From positions 1-45,128 of the IMG/VR virus record IMGVR_UViG_3300030117_003909: DNA of 45,128 bases, one strand, 5' to 3'. This document shows positions 10,201-43,373 of the stretch, piece by piece (within the stretch, counting starts at the first letter, position 1; every line of letters starts with the position of its first letter). A program made the translations under genes and the position numbers. This stretch comes from a virus. Taxonomy: Duplodnaviria; Caudoviricetes. The notes under the pieces are model-generated. The model worked only from the letters and a program-made list of their open reading frames with translations. It was not told where the DNA came from and did not search any database.

Positions 10201-11143
10201 CGAGATCTACAAGGTCTCTCCCTTTATGGCGGCCAGGCACAAGCTCGGCGTGTCTGCGTTCGAGATGCAGCAGCAGGTGCTGTCACTGGTCGAGACCGGC
10301 AAGTTCCAGTCCGTTAAAGAAGCCCAGCGCTGGCTAGCCAAGAACACCTATTGGATGCAGGAGATCATCCAGAAGCCTGTCGACCTGATCGTCTGGCGCG
10401 GGGCCTACGCGCAAGCTATCGACCAGGGCAAGGGCGAACGCGAAGCGATCAACGCAGCCGACGGTGCCGTGCGCCGGACGCAAGCCGACACGGCTGTGAC
10501 GTCCATGGCTAAGGTCGAAAAGGGCGGCCGCTTTGCCAAGATGTGGACGCAGTTCCTGTCCTGGTTCCTGTCCCTCGGCTCGATGCGCGCGTCGGCTATG
10601 CGCCGAGCTTCGCTGCAAAAGCGGGCTGACGACGGCACGCGCGCGGCGTGGGTGCTGCGCGTGATCATGTCGAAAGAAGCCATGGCTGGTTTCTTCACGC
10701 TCTACATCGGCGAGCTCATCGCGACGGCGCTGCGCGGCGACGAGGAAGACAAGGACGCGACCGATACCTGGCTGGTCGACCCGTTGCTGATGACCGCGCT
10801 AGCTATCCCGCGAGCGCTTGGCCCCGTCGGCGCGTTCGCCGGCACGGTCGCCGCGCAGGGCATCCCGCTCGTAGTGCCTGAGCTTTCGCGCGGGCTCGAG
10901 TATCAGCAACGAATGCCGGACCCGGCAGCGATTGCCATCATTAACCAGATCGGACGAACAGCGCGGAACTTGTTGGCCGACGATGCTGATCGTAGCGACG
11001 TGCTCGACGCGCTTGAGCTAGCGGCAAAGATTGTCGGCATCCCGCTGCACGTCGTAACGCAGCGCGCTCGTCGCGGCTTTAACCTCTTCGACGAAGAGAA
11101 GGTCGAGCCGCAAGGCGTATCGGTAATCACGGGGCGCCGCTGA
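1229..11143 (+). CDS. Giant (3304 aa) internal virion/ejection polyvalent protein (T7 gp16/BPP-1 Bbp10 position): LPD23 + zincin metallopeptidase, HhH-glycosylase-like domain, ART-PolyVal ADP-ribosyltransferase, second HExxH domain, helical C-terminus
   Basis: IYEATGWFVGPEGKPRYEIND (LPD23-like); LHEVQHAIQEIEGF..GEAEAR; WYDGA..KVRNFYHNI..TADTH..QSISW; TPEFRAWFGDSKVVDENGQPRRVYHG..VYPVYL..GFDGI..VFEPTQIKSATGNQGTFDP; VHELAH; hydrophobic Gly/Ala segments near both ends; last gene of the virion block. Confidence 0.85.
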   Translation: MTDFSNFARYSQQPKNPFDPGYVGSWPVDPAGIQGPEIEVSPALQLMFEREQMAKDRALIEQLRAMPEQDVEQMAEAEGLSIELGLDAETVRANIKNARRLLAVQQMQEAKTAENYPILWRQMQDPTFAALALDDFDKLSWLEQWSAGWESANIMEELAAAANKLRDQGGTFRTEAEKENYMRLAKRMEDLGHVDTFWGMTGQTISQMAIWETGVAIGASIGAAFIPPAAPALVPIAIGLAGAVPAAYHTYELEGGLAYQQYKEAGIAEDVARRNSHAAGLINAAIEMGTLAFFAKPFGAATRNLANRTGLTRRLLGNALDSRTATRAWRKTVGRGLMSLGSELGQEVSQENVTALFEYFGKKTTEARDQMNEVMSNAVINMPGGGRVVKEDGKVRVTPDVFKRVTGRPVEFLDSDGMITLEGDVAKRMLEDVREIFPIETALNDETFLSDMWELSTATAGQAIMGVGLVSQFGPTLQHFSEMKRVRHAKEQQTAYQEVKENLKDSKLRQRSSSRMVMLLRKHWRGTKMGEVHIPRAEFTKALDDTGLTVEEVEEVFPGLTEQLDKSEEQQPTVVLDGAKFFGEVAETELQDRLFEHIKPSANDYTIAESKAMKERIDAEAKRLREGMKAADGLRDQVDVDTEQLFEKLTQNALDAGVRNKQTARDSAALAVAGLRVRAEHASMAKGTLVLPSQLLADMGIDADNLVIAKPEDYDVKTVFRQFAGTRSETADMPAFEQAVQMAEAGASADEIYEATGWFVGPEGKPRYEINDKDADVFEDEIPEANGESVNLKDVFYHPELFAAYPQLKSMQFRVVDREESNRVFDGNESVGGWYDEEKNEIVHVVEDDSPASMPAGGQLRRTFLHEVQHAIQEIEGFAGGTPGGANRFAFLDRKSDNYMRTEMHFEAEVRKFWDTFLGVDADNPTKMGEALSTSDFQTLAYFADLQIQREILTRKEENMRREGENEGLIDEVVEERKEIEESINRTLEDIGNREIEIDRAPVPLPAHYEAFVVARRELNMLLDRIFKEDPDDLYMRTAGEAEARLTELRGSYTPEMRRAIPYDKGLLLLEGEEVDGPRDRANLVFFMQGTQRQVQFAPATSTKFRQVLTTTVPTGKAGEAADPTDVQLPLKERAMSGSAKQQQTNVNLFSAREATQTKSGKAVTQRTYDGVVVTGDTLDEQAESIIGHMVRNLHALFDAVPPEIRLRSRLWYDGANRMAQEFASRYGISLPQAAGMLAVMSPQADWRMNVSYVERVLDAMTHFSNEQLTPEMDAWAAEWVKGSAANEALYAEMKGKTLSQLQGKRGAQALWIRAFDQFNNSKAFREIAPEGDLLSFVQTGKGEDLKIGWKSLGATMNALAVYEDISNLHLALGDQHKVRNFYHNILDPNSDIPFVTADTHQVAANLLLPLGGNAYEVSHNLAGSGTATDGKLGLKGTYWLYHEAVKRAAEARGVLPREMQSISWEAVRGIFTPAMKRDKAFVAEVRDTWNRHESGELTHAQAVEEIFKRAQARGGDLAGPFWTKIAPGSGGAITDGHRTYRSERPIPGDAGDVVRGPEQRGGRADAGVDVQQEGAAETAPTRADELAGNRGVARLFPPPGPVRAPAGTMQATRVGGAGRTTLRQGGLPQTETPEFRAWFGDSKVVDENGQPRRVYHGSARSFDRFDILKATDAEGMERGMGWGPRKFYFADTGEAASSSAEFAQMTGRGDAPQVYPVYLSVQKPISADVYAKRAQEKMDAGASRAEAFSQLDAEVRAEGFDGIVDDVSGGIAVFEPTQIKSATGNQGTFDPNDPSMLRQQGGEVRGEFDPESMQIILGKKHDPTTMVHELAHFFFELDTKMALAGVASPQQLRDMETILDELGEGEFSSLEDYLTSGLEKRRKLHEKVAYNFETYMFEGKAPNAALKDVFRRMSKWMVRIYRQVRDVIAANYYAETFDEATGKGAQLPALTDDVRNVFDRWLAADEEIEIRLREEAIGRLLRADQTDDLDELDKILLQEIVFEHEHEAKEKLREVLLSELKKLRTMRGRMMRKAQRESRAERRKREAEERQRIASGDRLGRLLHFMSTGELLNADGTVDRSSLQARLEGALNRLYLLMKEQTANKQELADRQAALDATITDSATQIADQRKGIAEVRAGLRLLRKAGGDQSTRIDESLDYIRTAESKIEGLEKARKAAREELKAMRGEIKRVDKAIEKAKKSVAVAQRGAEGVKGKRLRMFLTDDPRVPEQYRTTDPDKAEIVDVERFARQNGFGSADVMFDAMRRQMIGEKKQAVEVEAGGVKYRLPGDPAGEALQDMVNDRTDERMLAEVPHLADPAQMQFEIDAAMTNEAIIRLRAAELRMMEKQPLSERRRTQEMVRVAREVARVDVGKLTTRELFGRKNLVRKFTQQAQASERLAAANRGDVEAMAKHQRTALYFRAMAEQATDARNAIEKQSNKLQKRLRFQPRSGKAEDQLAKSYGGAVVETARQMLDMIGVEVGSGVRNQGPAWQDLPEDSPERQMLEQADSDMRMVVSTDGQLMDQSVEQAMESLEYVEGVLMQGKWARMFELEGKVAELDDIIRQLREQVEAEMTPKRSRKAPTTAREKIKGKIRQWNYNTQRTEQLLYALDGDQQGLLSQLIFVPLRNAEDQVEIHLAAVIEKLAPLLQTVRDEVGSNRDLSRPVATGVDATGEPLLRDRSKQTQDADVLENGKLDVLGMLLHCGNESNLRRLLLGFGWAELRPDGSINSARWWEQVRQWEEAGVITAADWEFCQGVWDIYEDELLPMTQQAHVDMLGRRMSLVDKGMPILKTRTMADGTVVNVAGGYVPAGRDPQLRSPKGERNEQDTLLGFQRSIATINKGHTKDRVDEDDPDPLDINPINQILHFRQSIIFAQMGPAHKKVATLLRNDEFSKLLERMAPGIYKNVLDPLMETAATLSSTLVAARGADMLDGLDFVDKLRSNYGAAAMFGNVVNSLQGMTGVLLAGMSGQVKWRYLAEGMGSGHTKSEIYKVSPFMAARHKLGVSAFEMQQQVLSLVETGKFQSVKEAQRWLAKNTYWMQEIIQKPVDLIVWRGAYAQAIDQGKGEREAINAADGAVRRTQADTAVTSMAKVEKGGRFAKMWTQFLSWFLSLGSMRASAMRRASLQKRADDGTRAAWVLRVIMSKEAMAGFFTLYIGELIATALRGDEEDKDATDTWLVDPLLMTALAIPRALGPVGAFAGTVAAQGIPLVVPELSRGLEYQQRMPDPAAIAIINQIGRTARNLLADDADRSDVLDALELAAKIVGIPLHVVTQRARRGFNLFDEEKVEPQGVSVITGRR
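5727..6008 (+). CDS. Putative nested (overprinted, +1 frame) 93-aa gene inside the giant ejection gene; candidate inhibitor/antitoxin
   Basis: GGGAG at 5713-5717 before ATG 5727 (also GGAG 5822-5825 before ATG 5835); GC-rich third codon positions switch from the main frame to this frame over 5835-6008. Confidence 0.6.
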   Translation: MPKQSKKSSSARKPAAATSPAPSGQRLPPVLAELSRMGIAPTVANVRSLVTPETLSEDQSSEEAEQMLASMFNKKGQLRPHLRAQMSSQATAE

Positions 11144-20029: not shown

Positions 20030-21307
20030 TTAGTTTTCGTCGCGCTCCATCGCCCACAGCTGGTCGTAAAGGTCAGCCAGCAGGTTCGGGACCTTGTCGA
20101 TGGCGGCATCATCGGCGTGCTCCGCCGGGTCGATCAGTTCGGCCAGCGTCTGGCCCGTGGACGCCTGGACGGCGTCCAGCGCGTCGTAGGCGCGCTGCAG
20201 CAGCTGCTGCGTAGCTCGCGCAGCTGCGCCAGCGTCAGCGGCCGTCTGCAGCTGGTCGAGGTATGCCTGCACGCTCTCGCCGGTCAGCTTCGAGCCGTCG
20301 AGGTTGCACGCGACGGTCGCGCCCTGCAGCTGCTGCATGCGCTCGTCAAGCTCGGCTAGCTCGGCTTGAAGCTCGTGCTTGCGCTTGTCGGCGGCCTTGA
20401 GTTGTTGCGCCAGCTGCTCGCCAGCTGCGTCGGATTCTGGCGCAGCTGCGTCGCCAGCTGCGTCGGATTCTGGCGCAGCTGCGTCGGATTCTGGCGCAGC
20501 TGCGTCAAGCTCGCCGTTCGCAGCTGCGGTCTTGATGGCCTTGACGGTGCCGTCGAGCGCCGCATTGCACGCCTCGGCGACCGCGGCCTTGTAAGCGCGC
20601 TGCAGCTGGCGCGTGCGGAACGTCAGCGTTTCGTAGCACCAGGCGTCGGCAAGCGAGTTGACGCAGTTGTCGGGGAAGATGCGGCTCGGGAGGGCGCGCC
20701 GGTCAACGCCTGCGACGCTCGCAGCGTGCTCGACGACCGTGCTGTGGAGGCGGAAGCCGCCCGTCAGCGGCGCGGCGCGCTGCAGCGCGTTGCGGACGCC
20801 GGCGAGGAACTTGTAAAGCTGCGCGGTGCTGCGCTGCTCGGTGAGCTTGTTGCTGTTGAGCATGTCGCAGACGTGCTTCGGCAGCTTGAGCGGCTCCTCG
20901 CCGTGGTCGAAGATCGCGTCGTTGATCAGCAGGGTAGCGCGGCCAGCTGCGGCGATCAGTTCGGCGCGCTCGGCGAAGTCGCGAGCGAACTTGGCCCGCA
21001 GGTAGCGCTTGATGAGGCCGTAGGGGAGGCGCTCGTTCTCGCAGTGCCACAGCGCGCTGTGCGTCCGGCAAACGGCATGCCCCTGGTCGGCAGCGGCATG
21101 CGAGTGCGCGGCGCCAGGCGTCGCCTCGGCAACCATCACGGACTCGGCGACGACGTCGCCACTGTAGGTCGCGCAATGCTTCTCCAGCAGTTCGAACAGC
21201 GTGGGGAAGTTTCTAGCGATGGTCTGCAGGTCGTCGCTGGCGTTGTCGAGGTTGAAGTCGGCGCGCCGGCGGGCGTTGGTGAAGATGTAGCGGTGTGAGT
21301 TGGCCAT
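20030..21307 (-). CDS. Early protein: degenerate NADAR/YbiA-like N-terminal domain, AAAPESD repeats and coiled coil
   Basis: NFPT..ATPGAA..W..IKRYLRAKF..RAELIAAAGRATLL.ND..LYKFLAGVRNAL parallels YbiA; AGGAG RBS. Confidence 0.6.
   Translation of the reverse strand: MANSHRYIFTNARRRADFNLDNASDDLQTIARNFPTLFELLEKHCATYSGDVVAESVMVAEATPGAAHSHAAADQGHAVCRTHSALWHCENERLPYGLIKRYLRAKFARDFAERAELIAAAGRATLLINDAIFDHGEEPLKLPKHVCDMLNSNKLTEQRSTAQLYKFLAGVRNALQRAAPLTGGFRLHSTVVEHAASVAGVDRRALPSRIFPDNCVNSLADAWCYETLTFRTRQLQRAYKAAVAEACNAALDGTVKAIKTAAANGELDAAAPESDAAAPESDAAGDAAAPESDAAGEQLAQQLKAADKRKHELQAELAELDERMQQLQGATVACNLDGSKLTGESVQAYLDQLQTAADAGAAARATQQLLQRAYDALDAVQASTGQTLAELIDPAEHADDAAIDKVPNLLADLYDQLWAMERDEN
20410..20506. 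repeat. 21-bp tandem repeats GCAGCTGCGTCGGATTCTGGC (about 3 copies plus partials)
   Basis: Read directly; encodes AAAPESD on the minus strand. Confidence 0.9.
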
Positions 21308-27374: not shown

Positions 27375-27407
27375 GGGGCCCAGGGCTGACGCGCGCTGTG
27401 GCAGCCT
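27373..27407 (+). promoter_or_regulatory. Putative late-promoter motif, copy 1: AAGGGGCCCAGG-N14-TGGCAGCCT
   Basis: Same 12-mer and spacing as 32960-32994; an in-frame GTG follows at 27416. Confidence 0.45.
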
Positions 27408-27415
27408 GGGCCTCT

Positions 27416-27862
27416 GTGGATGTCCGTATCGACAAGCTAAGGTGTTGCGACATGCAAGAGGAGGGCGCCGCTCTCCTCGAAGCAAACGCCCTGGAGACAG
27501 GGCACCGCGAACTCAACATCGAGTGGGGTAGCTACTACCGCGCAGAAGCTCGGCACAACCTGCTGATGTTCGGTGCTTGGCATGACGATTGTCTCGTCGG
27601 CTACGTCCTTGGGTTCTACCTAGACACGCACCCACAGCATTCCGGTTGGTCTTACGTGCACGTCGACGCTTTGTTTGTGCACCCCGATTACCGGAGCACG
27701 TCTGCGTGCAGTCAGCTGATGTCGGCGATGAGCCGCGCGGCTAAAAGCACACGCGCACAGTCGGTGCTGTGGGCAGCTAAGGTCGACACCGGGTTCGAGC
27801 GCGCGCTCGACGGGCAAGACCGATTCAAGAAAGTCGAAACGATCTACGAGGAGCAACTCTAA
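27416..27862 (+). CDS. GNAT-family acetyltransferase
   Basis: LVGY, DALFVHPDYRS..L motif A; start uncertain (27398, 27416 or 27452). Confidence 0.78.
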   Translation: MDVRIDKLRCCDMQEEGAALLEANALETGHRELNIEWGSYYRAEARHNLLMFGAWHDDCLVGYVLGFYLDTHPQHSGWSYVHVDALFVHPDYRSTSACSQLMSAMSRAAKSTRAQSVLWAAKVDTGFERALDGQDRFKKVETIYEEQL

Positions 27863-28197: not shown

Positions 28198-29892
28198 ATG
28201 GTCGCAGCCGCCGAGCAACGGAACAAGAGCGGGCAGACCCTGGTCCAGCAAATGCAGGATCGGTGGCACCGCCTCGACACCATCTTCAGTTCGTGGAAGA
28301 GCCACGGCCAAGAGATCTCGCGCAACTACTTGCCGTGGTCGGGTCGGTTCTGGGTCGAAGACCGGAACGAAGGCGGTATGCGGAACCAGGACATTATCGA
28401 CAACACGCCGCAGCGCGCGATCCAGATCCTGTCCGCGGGGTTGACCGCGGGCGCGAGCTCGCCGGCGCGGCCGTGGTTCCGCATGGGCGTGCGCGACCCT
28501 GAGCTCGCGCGCAAGCACGACATTCGCGTGTTCCTTGATGACGTTACAAACATCATCCTGCGGACGTTCTCTGGCTCTAACGTTTACCGAGCGCTGCAGC
28601 AGATCTATACGGACTGCCCGCTCTACGGCACGGCCGCGGCGATCCTCGTGCCGCACCCGACGCGCACCGTGCACATGCACGTCTTGCCGTTCGGCCAGTT
28701 CCGCGCGGCGTCAGGTCCTGACGGTGACGTGCAGACGCTTTACCGCGAGATGGAGATGTCGGTCGCGCAGGTCGTGCGCGAGTTCGGGATCGACAAGGTC
28801 AGCGAGCGAGTTCGCACGCTCGCGCACAACGGCGGTCAGGACGAGCCTGTCACCGTGCGCCACGCGATCGAGCCGCGCATGGACCGTGACTTCAGGGCAA
28901 GCGATAACCAGAACATGCCGTGGCGGTCGGTCTACTGGGAGGTCGCACAGCAGCCCGACAGCAGTAGCAAGGTGCTGCGCGAGTCTGGCTTTAACCGTTT
29001 CCCTGCGGTGGTTCCGCGCTGGTCGCTGATTCCTGGCGACGACTACGGCAGCGGACCCGGCATGAACGGGCTCGGCGACGTGATCCAGCTGCAGCAGGAG
29101 CAGTATCGCAAGAGTCAGATGATCGACTTTGCGTCTGACCCGGCGATGATCTTACCGTCGGACATGAAGAACCAGGAAGTCGACCTGGCGCCTGGCGGCA
29201 AGAACTACACCGACGCGACCGGCGCGAACCGGGGCGGCCCGCTGTGGCAGGTAGGTCAGCAGCTGCAACCGTTGCTGCTCGACATCCAAGACGTGCGGCA
29301 GCGCATTAACAGCTGCTGGTTCGCAGACATGTTCCTGATGATCGCGAACACCGATAAGAACATGACGGCAACTGAGGTTGCCGAGCGGCACGAAGAGAAA
29401 CTACTCATGCTCGGGCCGGCGCTCGAAAGACTGCACAATGAACTTTTAGAGCCGCTCGTCAACCTCACCTTTAACTACTTGCTTGAAGCTGGCGAGCTTC
29501 CGCCAATCCCTGAAGAGCTTGTCGGAGGTAATGTCGAAATCGAGTTTGTCTCGATGCTGGCGCAGACGCAGCGCGCGGTTGGCGCGAAGAGCATTGACCG
29601 GTTTATGGCGACGGCCGGCGCGGCCGCGCAGATGAAGCCGGAAATCCTTGACCGGCTAAACGCTGACGAGTTTGTCGAAGACTTGGCCGACCGGCTGGGC
29701 GTCCCGATCCGCATGCTTGTTTCGCGCGAAGACGCTGACGAGCTCCGCGAGGCGCGTAACCAAATGCAAGCTGCCCAGGCGCAAGCCGAGATGGGTCAGC
29801 AACAGGCCGGCGTCGCTAGTGAGCTTGCGAAAGCGCAGTCCATGGCTCCGGCGCCTCCCGAGCAACAGTTTACGCAGGTGGCAGGTAGCTGA
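28198..29892 (+). CDS. Portal (head-tail connector) protein, T7 gp8/Bbp21-like
   Basis: LSAGL..SSPARPWF, SNVY, YGSGPG, MTATEVAERHEEKLLMLGP.LERL..ELL.PL. Confidence 0.95.
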   Translation: MVAAAEQRNKSGQTLVQQMQDRWHRLDTIFSSWKSHGQEISRNYLPWSGRFWVEDRNEGGMRNQDIIDNTPQRAIQILSAGLTAGASSPARPWFRMGVRDPELARKHDIRVFLDDVTNIILRTFSGSNVYRALQQIYTDCPLYGTAAAILVPHPTRTVHMHVLPFGQFRAASGPDGDVQTLYREMEMSVAQVVREFGIDKVSERVRTLAHNGGQDEPVTVRHAIEPRMDRDFRASDNQNMPWRSVYWEVAQQPDSSSKVLRESGFNRFPAVVPRWSLIPGDDYGSGPGMNGLGDVIQLQQEQYRKSQMIDFASDPAMILPSDMKNQEVDLAPGGKNYTDATGANRGGPLWQVGQQLQPLLLDIQDVRQRINSCWFADMFLMIANTDKNMTATEVAERHEEKLLMLGPALERLHNELLEPLVNLTFNYLLEAGELPPIPEELVGGNVEIEFVSMLAQTQRAVGAKSIDRFMATAGAAAQMKPEILDRLNADEFVEDLADRLGVPIRMLVSREDADELREARNQMQAAQAQAEMGQQQAGVASELAKAQSMAPAPPEQQFTQVAGS

Positions 29893-31439
29893 TGAAACGT
29901 AACAGGGAAGGCAGCTTCGGTAGGCACCCACAGCCGAACGAAGGCCGCGGCGCTTCCCCTGTCGACCAGGCCGGCTCCTTGCCTATTGTCGGCCCAGAGC
30001 TTCGCCGGCACGTGCGACGGGCTGGGTTTGCTACTGAGCTTGGCGAACTGCAAGACGTCGATCTGACGACAGTAGAACCTACTGACGGCCAGGCCCTGGT
30101 CTACGACGCTACGAACGACGTCTGGGAGCCGGCCAACAACCTGGTCAGCGGTAGCCTGACCGGGCTTGGTCTCACCGCTACGGCTGCGCGTTTGATCGGC
30201 AACGCGCAATCGAGCCCGTCTTCGGGCGCCGTCGAAGAGATTCAGCTAGGCAACGGGCTGGCGTTCACCACAGGCCCGTCAACGCTAGGCGTCCCTAGCG
30301 GCGGCATTGGCACTACCCAGATTTCATCTGACGCGATCACCACCGACAAGATCAACGCGCAAGCAGTCACGGCAGCCAAGATCGCGAACACCACGATCAC
30401 GGCTACGCAGATCGCAAACACTACGATCACGGCTACGCAGATCGCGAACACCACGATCACGGCTACGCAGATCGCCGACAATACGATCACCAAGGTGAAA
30501 ATGACGGACTGCTCCGTCGACACCGACGAGCTCTGCGCCGACGCAGTCACCAGCGCCAAGATCGAAGACGACGCCGTGGCTAACGAGCACATCGCCGCTG
30601 ACGCGGTGCAGGCAACGCAGATCGCGGCGAACGCGGTAACTACTGCCAAGATTAACGCGGACGCGGTTACGTCGGCCAAGATCGCCGACGATGCGGTAGA
30701 CAGCGAGCACATCGCAGACAGCGCGGTGACCAGCGCATTGCTAGCGGATGGCGCAGTGACCACGGCCAAGATTACCGACGGGGCTGTGACCGCCGACAAG
30801 ATGGCGGCAACAACGATCACCAGTGGCAAGATTGCTTCGTCTGCTATCACGTCTACGCTGCTAGCAAGTTCCGCTGTCGAGACTGCGAAGATCGCTGACG
30901 ACGCGGTGACCGAGGCCAAGCTAGCCAACACGCATGTCCTGCGAGCAGACCGGCAAGTAGGCAACCCCTACGCCACGCTGAGCACCACGACGATCACGCA
31001 GTGGTATTCGTTTACGATCCCTGGCAACACACTGGCGACCCGCAACGTGCGCGTAGTAGCTCACGGCACGCTCAAGCAGAACAGCGGCAGCGGGCAAAAC
31101 TTTAGGGCCGTCGTGCGCTTGGGCGGCACCGACATCCACGAGGCGGCGGGCAGCATCTCAGACGACGCCGACGACGCGATCTGGCGCATGGAGCTCGAAC
31201 TGTCTTACCGGGCGTCGGGCGCTCAGTTCGTCAGCGGAACGTGGCGCGTGTCCGGCCAATACAACTCATCAGACGGCATCTCCAACATCTTTGGCATCAC
31301 CAAGGATGGTATCTGGGGTAACGACGCAATCGCTAAAACTGACAGCGGCGACCTAGCCTTGTCGTTCCACCAGAAGTGGGACACCTCGACAACCAACAGC
31401 GATTTCAAGGTCTACGCCGTGGCGGTGGAATATGTCTGA
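29892..31439 (+). CDS. Fibre-like structural protein with about 20 decapeptide repeats (V/I-T-x-x-K/Q-I-A-D/N) and a beta-rich tip
   Basis: L.ELQDVD..TDGQALVYD...W motif, repeat shaft at about 30310-30930, C-terminal beta domain. Confidence 0.75.
   Translation: MKRNREGSFGRHPQPNEGRGASPVDQAGSLPIVGPELRRHVRRAGFATELGELQDVDLTTVEPTDGQALVYDATNDVWEPANNLVSGSLTGLGLTATAARLIGNAQSSPSSGAVEEIQLGNGLAFTTGPSTLGVPSGGIGTTQISSDAITTDKINAQAVTAAKIANTTITATQIANTTITATQIANTTITATQIADNTITKVKMTDCSVDTDELCADAVTSAKIEDDAVANEHIAADAVQATQIAANAVTTAKINADAVTSAKIADDAVDSEHIADSAVTSALLADGAVTTAKITDGAVTADKMAATTITSGKIASSAITSTLLASSAVETAKIADDAVTEAKLANTHVLRADRQVGNPYATLSTTTITQWYSFTIPGNTLATRNVRVVAHGTLKQNSGSGQNFRAVVRLGGTDIHEAAGSISDDADDAIWRMELELSYRASGAQFVSGTWRVSGQYNSSDGISNIFGITKDGIWGNDAIAKTDSGDLALSFHQKWDTSTTNSDFKVYAVAVEYV
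30380..30490 (+). repeat. Near-perfect 30-bp tandem repeat (about 3.7 copies) encoding IANTTITATQ
   Basis: GATCGCGAACACCACGATCACGGCTACGCA repeated. Confidence 0.9.
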
Positions 31440-35054: not shown

Positions 35055-35591
35055 ATGGCTTTTCTTGACATCAGCTTGAACTTCACCAAGTCCAACGATT
35101 GGGACTTGGGCGCCGACTTGGGGGCGTCTGACACGGAGTATGCCCCCGACGTCATCACCCTGCCGGGGGACACCCAGTCTTGGGACGACTTCGGCGCGGG
35201 GCAGGACTTGGTCGTAGCGATCAACGTCACCGAATCGTTTGCTTCTTCCGGCGACCCGACGTGCCAGTTCGAGGTCGGTCTGGCGACCAACAACGCAGGC
35301 GGTAGCTTCTACTCGCTCGGGCTTAGTCGGGCCTTTACTAAGGCCCAGCTGACTGCCCAAGGGGACACCGGGATCTTGAACCCGGCGGTAGCTAACCTGT
35401 TTATGATCCCGATCAAGCCGCTGGATCTCGACCTCGACGGCACTCCCAACGGCAAGTTTATCTCGCTTCGCGCGGTGAACGCTGTCAGCACGGCGTTCAC
35501 CGCCGGCAAGGTGCAGGCGTGGTTGACGATGAGCAAGGGCACCGGCGTGCAGAACCTGAAGCACTTCCACGAGTCGGGCTTCACCGTCTAA
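35055..35591 (+). CDS. Capsid cement/decoration protein paralogue 1 (divergent Bbp16-like)
   Basis: D.GAGQDL.V.I.VTE.F..G..T.QF.V..FTAGKVQAWL; AAGGAGG RBS; directly after the MCP. Confidence 0.7.
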   Translation: MAFLDISLNFTKSNDWDLGADLGASDTEYAPDVITLPGDTQSWDDFGAGQDLVVAINVTESFASSGDPTCQFEVGLATNNAGGSFYSLGLSRAFTKAQLTAQGDTGILNPAVANLFMIPIKPLDLDLDGTPNGKFISLRAVNAVSTAFTAGKVQAWLTMSKGTGVQNLKHFHESGFTV

Positions 35592-35597
35592 CCCCTA

Positions 35598-35619
35598 GCG
35601 GGCCGCTTCGGCGGCCCGC
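35598..35619 (+). other. Stable hairpin with C(UUCG)G tetraloop between the cement genes (no U-tract)
   Basis: GCGGGCCGC-TTCG-GCGGCCCGC. Confidence 0.75.
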
Positions 35620-35634
35620 CCATCAGGAGGCATC

Positions 35635-36132
35635 ATGCTTATCGAACACAACTGGCGCTTGTCGGAAGAGCAAGCGATTACGGCAACGGCGAACTCGACG
35701 AACGTAATCGACCTCGAAGACGTGCGCGATCTCGGCGAGGGCGCGCCCCTCTACGTGCACACGCAAATCGTGGGCGCCGACTTCAGCGACAGTTCCGGCA
35801 CGGACGCTACGCTCACCATTACGGGGGTCGTGGCTGACAACACGGGACTGACTACCAACGCAGAAGAGATCATCCTCGGCCCGGCGCTTGCGCTGGCTAA
35901 CCTGACTCTTTACTCGCAATACTTCTTTCCGCTGCGCTCCTACCGTTTTGGCGAAGACCTTACGATCTACGCGCACGACGGGACGCCGACAAGCGTCCTG
36001 AACGGTCGGCGCTACTTCGGGCTGAAGTATACGGTCGCCAGTGGTCCGTTTGACGCTGGTAAGCTCACGACGAAGCTAACGCTTGACCAGAGCACTACTC
36101 CGCGGGTCTACCCGGCCAGCACTTCAACCTAA
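35635..36132 (+). CDS. Capsid cement protein paralogue 2 (Bbp16-like)
   Basis: LSEEQAITATANSTNVIDL..RDLG.G..RRYFGLKYTVASGPFDAGK..YP matches the Bbp16 pattern; AGGAGG RBS. Confidence 0.82.
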   Translation: MLIEHNWRLSEEQAITATANSTNVIDLEDVRDLGEGAPLYVHTQIVGADFSDSSGTDATLTITGVVADNTGLTTNAEEIILGPALALANLTLYSQYFFPLRSYRFGEDLTIYAHDGTPTSVLNGRRYFGLKYTVASGPFDAGKLTTKLTLDQSTTPRVYPASTST

Positions 36133-36141
36133 TCTGCAGCC

Positions 36142-36348
36142 ATGTCAAACCAGAAACGTCGCGTGCGCGCGCTCAAAAAAGTCTACGTCGGCAACGTCTT
36201 TCACAACGAAGGAGCCGAGTTTGTCTACGACGGCCCAGCTAACGCAAACCTGTTTCTGGAGCTCGAAGCCGGCGACACCACCCCGGTGACGTCGAACGTG
36301 CCGCGCGCGGAAACGAGCGCGGAGCCCGAAATCGACGACGTGTTGTAG
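36142..36348 (+). CDS. Small protein at the end of the head operon
   Basis: 68 aa, followed by a terminator. Confidence 0.7.
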   Translation: MSNQKRRVRALKKVYVGNVFHNEGAEFVYDGPANANLFLELEAGDTTPVTSNVPRAETSAEPEIDDVL

Positions 36349-36378
36349 CAGATTGTTCGTGTGAGAGAGTGAGTTGAT

Positions 36379-36414
36379 AGCCCTGTCGCCGCCCTCGCGG
36401 GGGCAGGGCTTTTT
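36379..36414 (+). terminator. Rho-independent terminator after the head genes
   Basis: AGCCCTGTC..CCGC-CCTC-GCGG..GGCAGGGCT followed by TTTT. Confidence 0.75.
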
Positions 36415-36426
36415 ACATAAAGCATC

Positions 36427-39400
36427 ATGGTTGACTACACACTAGTGCTGGAGCTCGGGTCGTCGAACGCTGCGCCGCTCGGGGACATTCAAGGTTGGGA
36501 AGACGCACACCCCGAGCTCGCTGTGCGGTCACCTGGCATCGACCGCTCGCGCGCGAAGCAGGTCAGCGCTGGCAGCTACCGCGACGACTTCACGCTAGCC
36601 GCGACGTTCAAAGGCGGCCCGCAATCTGACGTCTACGGCACTACGATCAACGGGACGTGGCAGACGGTCAACCTGCGCGGCGTTGCATCTGACGCTGTTC
36701 GCGTCGCGACGTTCTACAACCCGAGCTCGACGCTCCAAACTCCAACGGCTCACGCACGCAACGTGCCGGGCACCTACAGCGTCGTCGCCGCGACTAGCGA
36801 AACACAGCCCAACAAGGGCGTCGAGTTTGCTACTAACTTCATCGTCCAGGCAGGCCGGATGGCTAGCGATAACGCGGCCAAGATCAGCGCCGTGTCTGGC
36901 ACCGCAGGCAACCAGACGCTGACGACAGCCGAAGCGCACGGCCTGGTTGTGAACGACATTGTAGTGTTTAAGCTGTTGAACTCGATGAATGTCGCAGTAG
37001 ACGACGGGCCCTACAAGATTACGAACGTAGGCTCTACGACTACGTTCAAAATGTCCAAGTGGCCAAGCGGAACCTCGGTGGCCGAGTTGGTGCTCGGCTC
37101 GTCAAGACAGGCGCGAGTTTACAAGGTCAACAACACGGCGTCCCCGTTCTTGATCACGCGCAAGCGCACGGGCTCGACGCACACCTACGCACCGACCGGC
37201 CTTGGCTCTGACTACGGCGGCCGCTTGGTTGTCGATCCGCCGTTCACGCCCGCGCCTGACGACAACGAGGAGTTCACCGTCGACCTGCGATTGCAGCGGG
37301 CACCTGCCGACGCTAACGACCCGCTCGTGCTCGACGCCTACCTGGGCGGCTTCGTCCGCAACAACCCTGCGTTATCGGCGGTTTCTACGCTTCGGACTTC
37401 TACGTCAAGCAGCTTCAAAATGTTGCACTCGCCAAAGCAGCCGCTTCGGCAAGGTCGAGCGTTCACCCTCGACACGTCGGCGTCCGCGTCGTGGCCTTAC
37501 ACAGCGGCCTTGCCCGACAAGATGCAGCTGCTGACCAAGGGCACGCCCGACGGCGGTAGCCCTAACACGGGAACAGACGACGAGTGGTATGTGGTAAACG
37601 AGCACTCGCTAGCGAACTGGCTGACGGTTGGCGACGCCGTGGTCGTTCACGACCTAGGCGACCTGTTCCCTAGCGACGAATGGAATGACGGGCAGACCTA
37701 CTACATCAAAACCGTAAACAGCACCAGCAGTGCGTCGACTAGCTACATCCAACTAGCTGCAACTCCCGGCGGCACGGCTATCAGCTACACCATCGACGGC
37801 ACGCCAGAGACAATGGGCATTTCGCCCTACAAGGAGACCCGCTATCCGATCCGCCAGCCTGTCGCGCTCGTCCCCGCAGCGCACACCGCAACGCAAGGCA
37901 CAAGTGACCGGCTCACGGTTGCCGTCGACCAAGAGTTCTGCGTCGGCGAGCGGATCAAGATCAGCTACGCCACAGGCGACGGGCCGACCAACGCGACCGC
38001 CGGCAGCGACTACTACGTTAAAGCTGTCGACTCAGCAACGACTCCAGGTGCCGAGCTCCTGACGTTGACCACCAACTCCAACACGTCTGCAGGGTCGGCT
38101 CTCAGCATTACGTGGGGCGGTCAAGCGCCAATCGTCGAGCGGCTTGATGCCTACTCGACGTGGCTCTTCGCAAGCACGCGTGACGGTGCCGAGGTCACGA
38201 CGACGACGCACAGCTTGACGACGCTAACGTGGACCGACGCCGACCGCTTTGCCGGGTCGATCGCTGGCTTGCGAATCCGCTGCACGTCAGGAGCTAACGT
38301 GGGCCAGTGGAAGCACGGCAAGCACGTAAGCTACGACAGTTCGACCGGCCTGACGCAGGTTCACTTCGACGGTGATTGGTCAAGCACGCCAACGGTCGAC
38401 GACGTGTTCGTCATCGAGCCGACGCCCGTAGGCTCTGACGACCGGCCCTACGAGAAGTTCTGCCAACTGCTGCCCTGGGCACCCTTTGAGGGCCGAGCTC
38501 GCGGTAGCGTCGAAGCTGGCCTGTCTACGGTGACGATCGCGCACGGAACAACGACTTCGGCGATCACAGCGGTCGGCTTGTCTGCGCCTGACCGGTCAGC
38601 GGTCAAGTTCTACACGACGGGCACGCTGCCCAACGGCTTGACGCCTGGCAAGACTTACTACGTCAGCAAGGGGTCGGGCACGTCAGCGGAGATCACCACG
38701 ACCTATGGCGGGACTAGCGCCATGCAGACGTCGGCGTCGGGCAGCGGCACGCACTACGCCGAGGTGGTTGACAACGATAACGGGTTTAACCCGCACCCGC
38801 CTGGCTTTAACTACCCTGGCCAATTCTCGATCCCGCGTCGCTACATGCCGTTCGACGGCTACGTGCAAGGGTCGTTCTACGGCGAGCAGACGTCGCAACA
38901 GTCCGCCGGGATCAGCGCCGGGATGCAGCTGGCGTTTGACCTGCACAGCCACACTGGCCGGCGCTCGCTCTACGCCCCGTTGGCTTTCGAGAAGACGACG
39001 CTGAAACACCGCGAAGTGCACGCCGACGGCACAGGTGCTGTGTTCGGATGGTCCGACCTAAACCAGCAACTCAGCTGGGCGCCTGGTGAGACCAACGGTT
39101 GCTTCGCGCGCTTGCTCGACATGCTTGACGGCATCAAGCTGGCGCTGACGGAAGAGAGCTCGACCATTGCCGATGTCGTGGTCCACTTTAACCAGGGCGA
39201 AGAAGACGCCGGCGTCGAGTATCTCGCGAACAACTACCGCAAGAACTTGCACCAGTTTAAAGCCGCCGTCCGCCAGGCGCTCTACGACCGCGGGCTCTCG
39301 CCGGTCAAGCCGGAGCGCATCAAGTGGTTGCAAGCCACAATCCCGACGGACGTGCCGCCGCGATCGGACCAGTCTACTACGACCCGCTGGCCCTACGCGT

Positions 39401-40254
39401 CGACGGTCAACACCGCGATCGAGGCCGAGGCGCTAGCTGACGACTACAGCCGGTCGCTTACGGGCACGGACCTAGAGTCGCACGCTGACCGCACGGTCTT
39501 CAGCGACAACGCTGCAGCTGACGAGGAGCACTACCACGGCACGCAGATGGACTTACTTGGCCAGCGCGCGTTCACGGCGTTTAAGGCGCTAGAGCGTAGC
39601 GGCTACAGCGAGACCGAGGTCTGCAACATGGCGCTGTCTTACCTCGGCGAGCCTGGCCGGCTAACCAACGTCGACACCGACACGTCGCGCGAGGCCGAGC
39701 TCTGCCGGCAGTTCCTGGCTGTCGCGCGCGACGAGCTACTAGAGCGACATGCCTGGGACTTCGCGCTGCGCTCCGTCTCGCCGACGAAGCGCACGGCGTC
39801 TCCGCGTGTCGACTACAAGTATGCCTACGACTACCCCGACAACGTCGCCAGCGTGCTGAGCCTGGTGCGGTCGGACGTCGACTACAACTACAAGACGATG
39901 GGCACGACCGGCCAGCACGACTACACGGTCGAGCTCGACGACAACGGCGACCGCGTGCTGCTTACGGACCTGAACGACGCGCTGATGCTCTACGTCGCCA
40001 AGGTCACCGACCCGACAAAGTGGAGCACCGTCTTCACCTCGGCGCTCGCCTGGCGCCTGGTCTTCCACCTGGCCGGCGCCATTCTCAAGGGTGAAGAAGG
40101 ATCGAAGAAAGCCGCGGCCGCAGCGCAGATGGCAGAGAACGTCTTGCGAACTGCGACTAAGCACGACAGCGACCACAAGCGCGACGTCGACATCAGCAAT
40201 CACGTCCCCGTATTCCTGCGCCACCGCAGCAACCCAGGCAACTACCGTCGATGA
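36427..40254 (+). CDS. Tail adaptor (tail tubular protein A, T7 gp11-like; about 39601-40254) fused C-terminally to an SGNH/SASA-type esterase interrupted by about 800 aa of beta-rich modules
   Basis: C-terminal SETEVCNMALSYLG..EAELC..ARD.LL..H.W.FA..Y.YAY.YP..F..ALAW.L; esterase blocks LGSSNA (36457), FNQGEED (39187-39207), DEEH (39520). Confidence 0.8.
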   Translation: MVDYTLVLELGSSNAAPLGDIQGWEDAHPELAVRSPGIDRSRAKQVSAGSYRDDFTLAATFKGGPQSDVYGTTINGTWQTVNLRGVASDAVRVATFYNPSSTLQTPTAHARNVPGTYSVVAATSETQPNKGVEFATNFIVQAGRMASDNAAKISAVSGTAGNQTLTTAEAHGLVVNDIVVFKLLNSMNVAVDDGPYKITNVGSTTTFKMSKWPSGTSVAELVLGSSRQARVYKVNNTASPFLITRKRTGSTHTYAPTGLGSDYGGRLVVDPPFTPAPDDNEEFTVDLRLQRAPADANDPLVLDAYLGGFVRNNPALSAVSTLRTSTSSSFKMLHSPKQPLRQGRAFTLDTSASASWPYTAALPDKMQLLTKGTPDGGSPNTGTDDEWYVVNEHSLANWLTVGDAVVVHDLGDLFPSDEWNDGQTYYIKTVNSTSSASTSYIQLAATPGGTAISYTIDGTPETMGISPYKETRYPIRQPVALVPAAHTATQGTSDRLTVAVDQEFCVGERIKISYATGDGPTNATAGSDYYVKAVDSATTPGAELLTLTTNSNTSAGSALSITWGGQAPIVERLDAYSTWLFASTRDGAEVTTTTHSLTTLTWTDADRFAGSIAGLRIRCTSGANVGQWKHGKHVSYDSSTGLTQVHFDGDWSSTPTVDDVFVIEPTPVGSDDRPYEKFCQLLPWAPFEGRARGSVEAGLSTVTIAHGTTTSAITAVGLSAPDRSAVKFYTTGTLPNGLTPGKTYYVSKGSGTSAEITTTYGGTSAMQTSASGSGTHYAEVVDNDNGFNPHPPGFNYPGQFSIPRRYMPFDGYVQGSFYGEQTSQQSAGISAGMQLAFDLHSHTGRRSLYAPLAFEKTTLKHREVHADGTGAVFGWSDLNQQLSWAPGETNGCFARLLDMLDGIKLALTEESSTIADVVVHFNQGEEDAGVEYLANNYRKNLHQFKAAVRQALYDRGLSPVKPERIKWLQATIPTDVPPRSDQSTTTRWPYASTVNTAIEAEALADDYSRSLTGTDLESHADRTVFSDNAAADEEHYHGTQMDLLGQRAFTAFKALERSGYSETEVCNMALSYLGEPGRLTNVDTDTSREAELCRQFLAVARDELLERHAWDFALRSVSPTKRTASPRVDYKYAYDYPDNVASVLSLVRSDVDYNYKTMGTTGQHDYTVELDDNGDRVLLTDLNDALMLYVAKVTDPTKWSTVFTSALAWRLVFHLAGAILKGEEGSKKAAAAAQMAENVLRTATKHDSDHKRDVDISNHVPVFLRHRSNPGNYRR

Positions 40255-43200
40255 ACACTCGGACAGTCCAGCTTTCGTTTGCGGGCGGCGAGATCTCTCC
40301 CGAGCTCTACGGTCGCCCCGACGCAACGCAATACCGGACAGGGGCTGCCCAGCTTAAAAACTGGGTCGTCAAGCCGCAGGGGCCCGCGCGCACGCGGCCG
40401 GGGTTCCGGCACGTCGCTACGTCCGCAGCGACAAACGCGCCGCGGATGGTGCCGTTTATCTACTCGACAGGTCAGAGCTTGGCGCTTGAGATCAGCCGCA
40501 ACGCCTCTGGCAAGTCAGTCGTCCGTTTCTTCACTCAAGGCGCCCCTCTGCTGTGGGCGGTTCCGTTTAACCTGGGCTCGGCTACGGTCGCGGTCGACAC
40601 CGCAGCCGACACGCTGACCGGGCTAGAGCGCCACGAGTATACGAAAGACACGCAAGTAAAGGTGCTGGCAGCTGACGGCGCGACGCTCCCGACCGGGATC
40701 AGCGGCGGAACAACCTACTACGCGCACGGGAGCTCGACCACGTTCACCGCGCGCCGGTTCCAGCTGCACACGTCGTCTGGCGGGAGTAGCTTGCTAAACA
40801 TCTCAGGCACCGGCTCGGGCTACATCCGTGCGTTTAAGAGTGTCGACTTACCTGCCGCGTGGGCCGCGTCGACGGCTTACGCGGTTGGCGATTTGATCTA
40901 CTGGCAGGGTGGGGGTGGCGTAAACCAAGGCGTGTTCTGGTGCGCGGAAGCGCACACGTCGTCAGGCACCGACCCGCTCGACGCCGGCGCGGCCAAGTGG
41001 CACCGCCAGCCAGACGACGGCGCTCTCGAATGCGTGCTTCCCGTGAGCTACGCACAGGCTGATCTCGACAAGCTGGTGTGGCGCCAGAACGGCGACGTGT
41101 TGACTTTGGCAAACAACGCCGGCACATACGCGCTGGTTGAAATCCAACGTGCGGGCGCCACGTCGTGGAAGACCGTGCTAGTGTCGCTCGGTTCCTCGTT
41201 AACCGCCCCGACCATCAGCAGCGTTGTCTCTGACCGCGGCTCTTCAGTTTTTATTAAAGAGGTCGGAACCTGGGGCAGCGATAGTCGGTGCTTCACGGGC
41301 ACTGCGCCTGGCGTAGCTGTGGGCGACGTTATCTACGTCGAAGCTATCGACCAAACAGGCACATCGTCGGCTAACCACCACGAGCTCGTGCACCCACTAA
41401 CCGGTGCGCGAACTGATTGGGTTGCCGGGAGCTACATTGTTAATCGCATCCAAGGCAATTCGATTGGTCTTCGCGATCTTACCGGCAGGCGCTTGGAGAA
41501 GGCGTCTGGTGGCAGCAGCGACAAGCTCGACATCACGGCCAACTTCTACTACAGCAGTTCGACCGTCGACACGACGCAAAAATACAAAGTGACGGCGCTT
41601 GATGACGACGGGCGTGAATCGCTAGCGTCAGCTGAGGGCACTGGCACTAACGTGCTGGAAGTTAACGGGGCCGCCAACACCGTTAACTGGAGCGCAATTA
41701 CCGGAGCCAACCGCTACCGGGTCTACAAGAAAGAGAACGGGTTGTTCGGCTACATCGGGGAGTCGGACACGACGTCGTTCGAGGACGACAACATCGCGCC
41801 GGACCTCGGGCGGACTCCGCCGATCACCGACACTTCGATCACCGGGTCGAACTACCCAGCGGCCGTAGGCGGCCACGAGCAGCGCTTGTTCTTGGCGTCA
41901 ACGTCTAGCAACCCCCAAACAGTCTGGGGCTCGAAGACAGGCAGCGAGCTCGATTTCACGTTCACGCTTCCGGTCCAAGACGATAACCGGCTTAAACTCG
42001 TGCTGGACTCCAACCAGGCGCAGACCGTCCGCCACATCCTGGGGATGCGCGATCTGATTCTGCTAACCCTGTCCGGCGAGTTCCGCGTGCGCGCGACCGA
42101 CGACGGCGCGCTGGCTCCGTCGACGGTGTTCGCGCGTCAGGAAGGCTATGACGGCGCGAACAACGCGCAGCCGGCGGCCATCTCTAACCACGTCGTCTAC
42201 TGCGCCGCGCGTGGGGGTCACGTCCGCAAGCTAGCTTACGAAGCGCGTCGCGCGGCGTTCGAGTCGCTAAGCGTAAGTCTGCGAGCTCCGCACCTGTTCG
42301 ACGATTTCGAGGTCACCGACTTTGGCGCGGGCAAGGCTCCGTTCCCCTGCGTCTGGGCGTGCTCGTCAAGCGGCAAGCTGCTTGGCCTCACGTTCGTGCC
42401 GGAAGAGCAGGTCGAAGGCTGGCACCAGCACGAGACGACGGGCACGTTTGAGTCGATCGCAGTAGTCCCCGAAGACGACGAGGACGTGGTCTATGCGTCT
42501 GTGAAGCACACCAACAGCAGCGGTGCCACGGTCTACACCGTAGAGCGCATGCAAGAGTTCGCCGTCTCTGACATCAAGCAAGCGGCCTGCTTGGACGCGC
42601 ACACGTCGACCTACTCGACAGCCGCAGCGCCCTACACCGCTGGCGTGCGGGTAGACGCTACTAGCCTGGCGGTCGGCGCAGCCGTCACGTTGACCGGGCG
42701 CACCACCGCTGACTCAAGCACCGAGACGGTGTTCGACAGCCAAGACGTCGGCCGTGAAGTGCACTTGACAAGCGGCACTACGACTTACCGCGTGCAGGTA
42801 ACCGGCTTTACTAGCGACGCGTCCGTCTCGGGCCTGCTGCTAGACGCCTTGCCGGCCAGCCTAGCCGGCTCGACCTTTGCGTCGGGCAGCTGGCGCTTCG
42901 CGAGCTCGCGCGTCTACGTGCCGGCCTGGCAGGCGGGCACGTCGTGCGCGGTCGTTGCGGATTCGGTCGAGGCCACGGCTGCAACGGCCGTAGCTAGCGC
43001 GCACGACACGGACCTAGCCTACGTTGACCTGGCGTCGCCTGGCCTCAACGTGCACGTTGGCCTGGCCTACACCTGCGACCTGCAGACGCTGCCAATTGCG
43101 ATCCAGGTCGAGGGCCTGGGCACTGGCCGAGAAAAGAACATCGACAAGGCGTGGCTGCGACTCTACGAAGCCGCCGGCCTGGCCGTGGGCCCTGACGCCG

Positions 43201-43373
43201 ACAACCTTCAACCGGTCACTGACGCGCAAGACAGCGCGACTCTGGCGACCGGCGAGAAGCGCACTTTGGTGACAGGGAAATGGACCGAAGACGGGCAGCT
43301 TCTAGTGCGGCAAGCAAAGCCCTTTCCTGCAACTGTCGTGTCGCTTGCGGCGCGTGTATCTTTCGGAGATTAA
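40251..43373 (+). CDS. Tail nozzle (tail tubular protein B, T7 gp12-like) with inserted modules including a CBM5/12-like domain
   Basis: QLSFAGGEISPELYGR.D..Y..G...N..V.PQG..RPG, YP.AV..EQRL, QTVW.S..G, GWHQH.T.G, VHVGL.Y; insert WAASTAYAVGDL...WC..AHTS..P..W. Confidence 0.9.
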   Translation: MNTRTVQLSFAGGEISPELYGRPDATQYRTGAAQLKNWVVKPQGPARTRPGFRHVATSAATNAPRMVPFIYSTGQSLALEISRNASGKSVVRFFTQGAPLLWAVPFNLGSATVAVDTAADTLTGLERHEYTKDTQVKVLAADGATLPTGISGGTTYYAHGSSTTFTARRFQLHTSSGGSSLLNISGTGSGYIRAFKSVDLPAAWAASTAYAVGDLIYWQGGGGVNQGVFWCAEAHTSSGTDPLDAGAAKWHRQPDDGALECVLPVSYAQADLDKLVWRQNGDVLTLANNAGTYALVEIQRAGATSWKTVLVSLGSSLTAPTISSVVSDRGSSVFIKEVGTWGSDSRCFTGTAPGVAVGDVIYVEAIDQTGTSSANHHELVHPLTGARTDWVAGSYIVNRIQGNSIGLRDLTGRRLEKASGGSSDKLDITANFYYSSSTVDTTQKYKVTALDDDGRESLASAEGTGTNVLEVNGAANTVNWSAITGANRYRVYKKENGLFGYIGESDTTSFEDDNIAPDLGRTPPITDTSITGSNYPAAVGGHEQRLFLASTSSNPQTVWGSKTGSELDFTFTLPVQDDNRLKLVLDSNQAQTVRHILGMRDLILLTLSGEFRVRATDDGALAPSTVFARQEGYDGANNAQPAAISNHVVYCAARGGHVRKLAYEARRAAFESLSVSLRAPHLFDDFEVTDFGAGKAPFPCVWACSSSGKLLGLTFVPEEQVEGWHQHETTGTFESIAVVPEDDEDVVYASVKHTNSSGATVYTVERMQEFAVSDIKQAACLDAHTSTYSTAAAPYTAGVRVDATSLAVGAAVTLTGRTTADSSTETVFDSQDVGREVHLTSGTTTYRVQVTGFTSDASVSGLLLDALPASLAGSTFASGSWRFASSRVYVPAWQAGTSCAVVADSVEATAATAVASAHDTDLAYVDLASPGLNVHVGLAYTCDLQTLPIAIQVEGLGTGREKNIDKAWLRLYEAAGLAVGPDADNLQPVTDAQDSATLATGEKRTLVTGKWTEDGQLLVRQAKPFPATVVSLAARVSFGD

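Follow-up and report, generated by a model that had tools for sequence, protein, structure and literature searches.

The usual view of head-tail adaptors is that of small rings with a structural role, and enzymes for receptor binding have been sought in fibres and spikes, where SGNH proteins are known to be active, as in the esterase spikes of G7C, Klebsiella and epsilon15 (PMC13123978; bioRxiv 10.64898/2026.07.31.742079). In the N4-like phage DEV, a carbohydrate-esterase-like domain of the fibre gp53 is collared round the head-tail adaptor (PMC11445570). Lactococcal 936 phages have a neck-passage protein with sugar-binding carbohydrate-binding modules (CBMs; PMC6669499), hydrolytic activity was reported for a bare T7-type adaptor, TTPA of KP32 (PMC5440376), and in Peru-2 the virion esterase is separate and unresolved (bioRxiv 10.64898/2026.06.25.734500). 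Here we describe a 45,128-nucleotide DNA stretch of a tailed phage (Duplodnaviria; Caudoviricetes; IMG/VR record IMGVR_UViG_3300030117_003909, referred to as the window over its full length), in which a single gene, open reading frame (ORF) 36427-40254, encodes an adaptor fused behind a split esterase-fold domain. Its product is named P0001, and residue numbers refer to P0001 unless another protein is named.

The C-terminal part of P0001 is a head-tail adaptor. Residues 1061-1256 match phrog_394 (E = 1e-35; profile positions 3-179 of 190 covered) and the Carin-1 connector 8CK1_E (E = 5e-12; positions 3-186), and this part is 31% identical to Bbp14 of BPP-1. The homology to the Bbp14/Carin-1 type spans the whole domain of about 200 amino acids (aa). 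It is the sole adaptor-like frame in the phage genome, and the gene sits between the capsid and nozzle genes; the adaptor is thus found not as a stand-alone protein of about 200 aa but as the end of a 1,275-aa fusion. A reading made from the sequence alone (the sequence-only reading) had proposed such a C-terminal adaptor, which is borne out by the uninterrupted frame and by these matches. It had also noted that the adaptor has no start or ribosome-binding site of its own. In-frame starts near the junction are limited to ATG 39547 (residue 1041) and ATG 39628 (residue 1068, within the adaptor), and no Shine-Dalgarno-like motif was found at either, although this is weak evidence since none precedes the start of P0001 itself.

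The fusion was also recovered elsewhere. Position 39600, at which the sequence-only reading had advised looking for support, is bridged by single contigs of three other studies (X2, 39187-41500; X3, 35968-41500; X4, 39013-40069), besides X1, which may be where the window itself comes from, and the same adaptor is carried by all 13 close homologues, of 1,114-1,426 aa. Among 82 sequences checked, which include redundant loci, 71 were fused without a separate adaptor frame, and the nine esterase-only frames were all truncated by contig ends. These results confirmed that the esterase-adaptor fusion is real and not an assembly artefact. An assembly chimera, or a stop-codon error joining two genes, is ruled out by the bridging contigs and the fused homologues, 133 distinct ones having the same junction type among the matches listed; nothing was found in its favour, and its probability is practically nil.

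Because P0001 is the only adaptor of the genome and known adaptors are dodecameric, a neck ring with up to 12 covalent esterase-fold arms is likely by analogy, as the sequence-only reading had supposed. The arm might instead be a delivery device, either cleaved off or bypassed by a short adaptor made from an internal start, which would leave a mixed or bare ring and an esterase that is free or present in few copies. The ATG at residue 1041 lies 20 residues ahead of the adaptor, the esterase-adaptor linker is only a few residues long, so that twelve 115-kDa arms may be crowded, and the confidence of the structural model presented below drops to 63-70 at residues 1061-1075, where the modelled chain was cut. 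However, residue 1041 has no ribosome-binding motif and is a variable hydrophobic position in the last esterase helix, while the fusion is retained on five tail types with no conserved cleavage motif seen. Such a device appears very unlikely.

The part ahead of the adaptor was modelled with AlphaFold2 (residues 1-1075, alignment of 76 sequences), giving a pLDDT of 86.9 and a pTM of 0.85. When this model was compared with 48,161 PDB chains, residues 3-1056 aligned to the CE6 esterase 1ZMB (Z 24.4, rmsd 2.1 Å, 224 of 284 residues), followed by 2APJ (Z 23.5), NanS (3PT5, Z 21.8) and the Pan3 tailspike (9VYH, Z 21.7), with G7C at Z 11.8; Foldseek put the same proteins on top. Since the 1ZMB alignment runs over residues 3-1056, the prediction unites the N-terminal strand that leads to Ser13 with the C-terminal half in a single SASA/CE6 SGNH domain, rejoined from residues 3-1056 despite the split. 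The motifs singled out by the sequence-only reading, LGSSNA at residues 10-15 and QGEED and DxxH about 900-1000 residues further on, were all found at their places, and in the model they assemble into an SGNH fold.

A profile of the shortest relatives, in which the tail is preceded by about 335 aa, falls on P0001 in four colinear pieces: 2-32, 85-118 and 666-691, each scoring weakly by itself, and 782-1055. The split also lowers the PF03629 score of P0001, which is 17.7 bits against a gathering threshold of 24.8; all 13 close homologues have a SASA match, five of them above the Pfam cut-off. P0001 opens with an esterase strand (from residue 3) and closes with the adaptor, and it does not have the N-terminal tail-docking domain of SGNH tailspikes.

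From the four colinear pieces it follows that the main inserts cover residues ~119-665 and 692-781, about 550 and 90 aa, both between blocks I and II. Identity of the first insertion to homologues is 18-60%, compared with 39-81% for the C-terminal half of the esterase. The repeated beta modules described by the sequence-only reading between the motifs correspond to a module of about 70 aa, present in three copies in P0001, in one copy in the nozzle protein and in 0-6 copies across 102 sequences, in which the module count follows protein length (r = 0.94). A structure search with the module gave best scores of 0.83 (ESM Atlas) and 0.81 (an E1_FCCH cluster), which are leads only and give no confident fold; the weak matches of relatives to endosialidase beta-barrels are likewise leads only. 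Inside one module, at 37677-37773, the X2-X4 contigs differ from the window by four small indels that sum to zero. This patch is either a locally divergent stretch or a short compensated frameshift.

The distribution of the esterase domain was followed with a tail-free profile (A2), which found 72 proteins and, in an exhaustive search, 923 matches, of which 150 were listed. In all, 255 distinct sequences were pooled, near-copies and some fragments included, and 237 of them had a complete esterase C-half. Five tail types account for 227 of these 237 among the matches listed: 133 tails are of Bbp14 type, 45 of DnaT_2/Ad1 type, 30 of SU10 type, 10 are gpW-like and nine, of 159 aa, are unidentified. 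The 45 are DnaT_2/phrog_477 Ad1 adaptors, whose genes lie between the capsid and the head-closure and tail genes of long-tailed phages (L014, L045). SU10-type tails matched PF24175 in 7 of 17 scanned, five at or above the cut-off, and their gene lies between the capsid gene and a large nozzle-like gene. The gpW-like tails, of 76 aa, matched the PHROGs head-tail adaptor families 118, 2545 and 5774 in all seven scanned and the R4C adaptor 8GTD_M (E = 0.004), in a gene slot between terminase and portal; Pfam gpW gave no match to them, and their label rests on the three PHROGs, 8GTD_M and the slot. We take gpW to be the name that belongs to phrog_118. The 159-aa tails are helical and occupy a neck-gene slot. 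Compared with Mu gp36, they gave an hhalign probability of 0.1% and a low-confidence helical model with a best Z of 5.6; the gene slot fits. In two contigs (L012:10001-12391 and L047:9918-12305) the gene with this tail comes after a 450-aa gene of no known function that follows the capsid gene, which we read as a Mu-like head gene order.

The remaining 10 sequences comprise one protein with a 180-aa tail, two tandem-SASA proteins of cellular look, three fragments and four possibly adaptor-less proteins. The 180-aa tail belongs to P0151, which extends a protein truncated in L016 (L016:9359-10873); it looks helical, is unlike the five types and is possibly a sixth adaptor family. The last four (P0205, P0213, P0178 and P0102) are distant split esterases that end without an adaptor and may be ancestral stand-alone forms, parts of split genes or fragments.

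In a tree built from 76 rows and 444 esterase columns, which covers four tail types and leaves the SU10 forms out, the tail type changes seven times, where three changes would be the minimum. Approximately unbiased (AU) tests rejected a single clade for the Ad1 (p = 9e-119), gpW-like (p = 2e-25) and Bbp14-type (p = 3.5e-5) tails. For these tests 16 near-identical or long-branch rows were left out, and the tree was a quick, single-model and unrooted one, so neither donor nor order is claimed. Adaptor alleles also switch among close relatives: P0002, which has the nearest esterase, is 81% identical to P0001 in the esterase and 66% in the adaptor, and P0007 65% and 90%. When the profiles of the five tail families were compared with each other, none of the 10 pairs exceeded a probability of 1%. 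The Bbp14-type and SU10-type tails show a colinear alignment of 161 columns and a probable remote homology; the five families are called different here, not unrelated. As a portable neck module, the esterase occurs on at least four adaptor families, some of which belong to long-tailed phages, and it is not specific to podoviruses. Two uncultured viral proteins in BFVD (A0A516LTA4 and A0A516LMG1) match strongly, and the fusion is widespread in uncultured aquatic phages.

The active site was examined by conservation counts over the 76 aligned rows, which are related to each other, with about four lineages among the decayed ones. In the model of P0001, Ser13 comes after strand E3-11, the place of a block I nucleophile. 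Block I has Gln12 in 72/76 rows and Ser13 in 63/76, and P0001 carries Ser in place of the SASA oxyanion Gln. The Ser12 codon is identical in contigs of four other runs (X2, X5, X8 and X12), and the seven differences listed among runs near block I are all synonymous. The block II position, placed by motif analogy, is E855-K856 in P0001, where 56/63 Ser-bearing rows have Gly; the sister protein P0002 has Gly12 and the same Glu-Lys at block II. In SASA enzymes, with their inverted oxyanion hole, this Gln is the residue that defines the oxyanion site, and its substitution abolishes activity (PMC9487903), as reported likewise for Gln18 of NanS (PMC9063846). With the oxyanion Gln replaced by Ser and no Gly at block II, P0001 is, by its sequence, likely to be a weak esterase or to bind only, although some SGNH enzymes tolerate a reduced oxyanion hole and full certainty is not claimed. 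The sequence-only reading had suggested that P0001 de-acetylates a surface polysaccharide, which is doubtful on the same grounds.

It had further suggested that the arms replace classical tail fibres. If P0001 were a fully active de-acetylase, the twelve arms could indeed be the main receptor-binding device in place of fibres. Ser13, Asp1032, His1035 and QGE are intact, the fold is rejoined in the model, SpOatA works with a two-part oxyanion hole (PMC9487903), and no fibre gene is annotated after the nozzle. Set against this are the replaced block-I Gln and the missing block-II Gly, residues of a kind whose substitution in SASA enzymes abolishes activity (PMC9487903), and a separate 515-aa fibre-like gene (phrog_892), in view of which the replacement of fibres stays unproven. 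Full activity combined with such a role is distinctly unlikely.

Across the family, the catalytic residues are kept or lost together. His is present in 63/63 Ser-bearing rows, and the four rows without His are all among the 12 without Ser, in three separate lineages; the block-II Gly is absent in 10 of the 12 Ser-less rows but in only 7 of the 63 Ser-bearing ones (related rows, as stated above, so that Fisher p values overstate the association). Ser and His are both present in 183/199 homologues with a readable block I, and most family members are probably de-acetylating enzymes. In the pseudo-esterase lineages (P0075-P0082, P0012, L007, L015 and L062) Ser is changed to N, D, L, E or G and a 1,000-1,350-aa fusion is retained. 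The joint decay of Ser, His and Gly supports a shared active site, and it shows arms that would be retained without catalysis. The pseudo-enzyme forms, kept in at least four lineages, could also mean that the collar does not serve a host receptor, but acts as a brace between portal vertex and capsid, or makes virions adhere to acetylated polysaccharide of gels, biofilms or particles in the water. Its position on the necks of long-tailed phages, distant from the tail tip, would fit such a role, as would the R4C adaptor extension, which touches the capsid and was read as stabilising (PMC10276861). On the other hand, most members keep the catalytic set, the insert is much more variable than the core, as in receptor-binding proteins, and a 1,050-aa domain would be costly for bracing. 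We regard this explanation as distinctly unlikely.

These data lead us to propose, with a probability of about 0.6, that the sole adaptor of this phage, fused behind a SASA/CE6-fold domain, provides up to twelve arms that grip a sugar, with weak or no de-acetylation. The adaptor domain would assemble as a dodecamer below the portal, as in its homologues (PMC13730344), and each subunit would project its esterase-fold arm outward from the N-terminus, as the R4C adaptor does with its immunoglobulin (Ig) domain (PMC10276861). The inserts, near the active-site loops between blocks I and II, would lengthen and diversify the binding surface. The likely target of the arms would then be an O-acetylated sugar of the host surface, which the present phage probably de-acetylates weakly or not at all, whereas most family members, with Gln-Ser, QGE and His intact, would de-O-acetylate capsule, O-antigen or exopolysaccharide, like the G7C and epsilon15 esterases. 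Several lineages, likely that of P0001 too, would have decayed towards binding only, and the module would move between phages as an N-terminal cassette through recombination at the esterase-adaptor junction. At slightly better than even odds, we further suggest that this is an undescribed appendage class, in which a SASA cassette was repeatedly gained on the N-termini of varied 12-fold adaptors, namely the Bbp14-type and SU10-type ones of podoviruses, the DnaT_2/Ad1 and gpW-like ones of long-tailed phages, and one or two without a name. It would form a covalent twelve-armed collar independent of the tail tip, tuned by gain and loss of beta modules and switched between enzyme and adhesin by decay of the active site.

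Several observations weigh against this proposal. Long-tailed members have their neck at a great distance from the tail tip, and a part of the R4C neck domain in adsorption was judged unlikely by its authors, who favoured stabilisation (PMC10276861). The window has its separate fibre-like gene at 29892-31439. The beta module is without a confident fold or ligand, its best score of 0.83 being a lead only, and up to four distant homologues (P0102, P0178, P0205 and P0213) may stand alone. Finally, P0001 keeps Ser, Asp, His and QGE, with synonymous changes near block I, and may still be active. The coordinates of the features are collected in Table 1.

Table 1. Positions of the fusion gene, its segments and motifs, and two further tail genes in the window.
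Feature	Position	Strand	Basis or remark
Separate 515-aa fibre-like gene after portal	29892..31439	+	phrog_892 tail fiber, E 7e-42
Esterase-adaptor fusion ORF (P0001)	36427..40254	+	1,275 codons open end to end; homologues
SASA block I, G11-S12-S13-N14	36457..36468	+	Ser13 (36463-36465) predicted nucleophile; Ser12 replaces family Gln
Second core segment, residues 85-118, also in minimal 550-aa forms	36679..36780	+	Weak local score; colinear order of four segments
Large insertion 1, residues ~119-665, all-beta in the model, most variable part	36781..38421	+	Model; profile mapping
Beta repeat module of ~70 aa, residues 396-467	37612..37827	+	E 5e-13
Beta repeat module, envelope residues 498-604	37918..38238	+	E 2e-10
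Third core segment, residues 666-691, LLPWxPxEG	38422..38499	+	Profile mapping
Insertion 2, one beta repeat module, residues 714-783	38566..38775	+	Profile search; segment mapping
C-terminal half of SGNH/SASA domain, residues 782-1056	38770..39594	+	Pfam scan; structure matches
Block II equivalent AFEKTT, no Gly	38983..39000	+	Motif analogy, not coordinates; family mostly xxGG(T/S)S or xxDG(T/S)x
Block III QGEED (SASA QGE), residues 923-927	39193..39207	+	Intact; Q 73/76, G 75/76, E 75/76
Block V D1032-E-E-H1035	39520..39531	+	Intact; His in 72/76
Head-tail adaptor domain (Bbp14 / Carin-1 connector / phrog_394)	39607..40251	+	Sequence matches; sole adaptor of the genome
Tail nozzle gene (phrog_376), 1,040 aa, beta module at its residues 124-210 (40620-40880)	40251..43373	+	PHROG match; module profile

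The phage encodes a terminase, portal, scaffold, GP7-type capsid, two Bbp16-like proteins, the nozzle and a 3,304-aa polyvalent protein, a gene set which indicates a BPP-1/Carin-1-like podovirus. The runs with its sequence that were used here (X1-X5, X8 and X12) come from marine or seawater metagenomes; runs X14-X20, with small shares of it, form no part of the evidence. No relative turned up in two scans of GTDB genome contigs, and thus no host is indicated; one homologue is labelled as part of an 'Ilumatobacteraceae' metagenome-assembled genome, but it lies on a single binned 11.8-kb contig and is not taken as host evidence. The nozzle of 1,040 aa compares with a profile of 712 positions, and nozzles adjoining SU10-type fusions reach 1,170-1,580 aa. 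The polyvalent protein (1229-11143, + strand) has LPD22, LPD23, two DUF7178 and ART-PolyVal domains and stands where an injected internal virion protein would be expected. Between terminase and portal lies a GNAT acetyltransferase gene (27398-27862, + strand), and L015 and L055 have a gene of similar size there; this places an acetyl-adding gene alongside an acetyl-esterase fold in one phage. Two tandem Bbp16-like cement genes are found at 35055-36132 (+ strand); within the second, runs X2 and X3 have a different sequence in place of 196 bases (35771-35968). A 425-aa ORF (20030-21307, - strand) with four near-tandem AAAPESD repeats had no Pfam or PHROG match.

A large glycan-esterase domain built into the adaptors of podoviruses and long-tailed phages points to a host-contact step at the level of the neck. 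Annotation misses such genes under the labels 'DnaT-like', 'tail protein' or hypothetical, and the family suggests, in testable form, where the enzymes with which many aquatic phages recognise acetylated glycans are located. Adaptor N-termini seem to tolerate a cargo of 350-1,290 residues at up to 12 copies, which would make them a useful display site. With both intact and decayed active sites, the family lends itself to a direct test of whether de-acetylation is needed or binding suffices.

The sequence-only reading knew this architecture from no characterised podovirus, and the searches agree with it: no cultured phage and no paper with the fusion was found. In 50,697 cultured records, tblastn of the esterase C-half, the 159-aa tail and P0226 gave no match, and for P0001, P0223 and P0106 no place covered 80% of the query, the 25 matches listed for each being to the adaptor part only. 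The literature search, which did not cover supplements and had most subscription journals outside it, found no covalent adaptor-esterase fusion, and the accessible parts of PMC13317679 and PMC12724387 hold nothing on enzyme-bearing adaptors.

Compared with the podovirus adaptors (Carin-1 connector, BPP-1 Bbp14, epsilon15 tail protein, phrog_394), the last 200 aa of P0001 are homologous, with 29-33% identity, and the gene occupies the same slot between the capsid/Bbp16-like genes and the nozzle. Cultured records match this adaptor part only, among the matches listed, whereas P0001 has 1,060 aa before it. With the SASA/CE6 esterases (1ZMB of C. acetobutylicum, At4g34215 2APJ, E. coli NanS 3PT5, PF03629) P0001 shares the predicted fold (Z 21.8-24.4) and the G-x-S-N, QGE and DxxH motifs, but it is split by inserts of about 550 and 90 aa, has Ser for Gln and is fused to a virion ring. 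SGNH spikes and fibres (G7C gp63.1, the epsilon15 gp20 petal, Pan3 tailspike 9VYH and receptor-binding proteins of Klebsiella prophages) display an SGNH fold on the virion, as predicted for P0001, and the epsilon15 petal is reported to have a beta-barrel inserted in its domain, like the inserts of P0001. These spikes are separate trimers docked on the tail, whereas P0001 would be a monomeric arm and a covalent part of a 12-fold ring. The lactococcal neck CBMs, as described, belong to an accessory neck protein and KP32 TTPA has no added domain, so neither is an SGNH cassette on an adaptor. The roseophage R4C adaptor (8GTD_M) has a similar plan, its N-terminus bearing an accessory domain at the ring periphery, but this extension is reported as a 106-aa Ig-like domain without an enzyme fold (PMC10276861). 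The nearest functional analogue is DEV gp53, described as a separate trimeric fibre, attached non-covalently with a 15:12 mismatch, unlike P0001. The adaptor-esterase fusion is a new architecture assembled from known parts.

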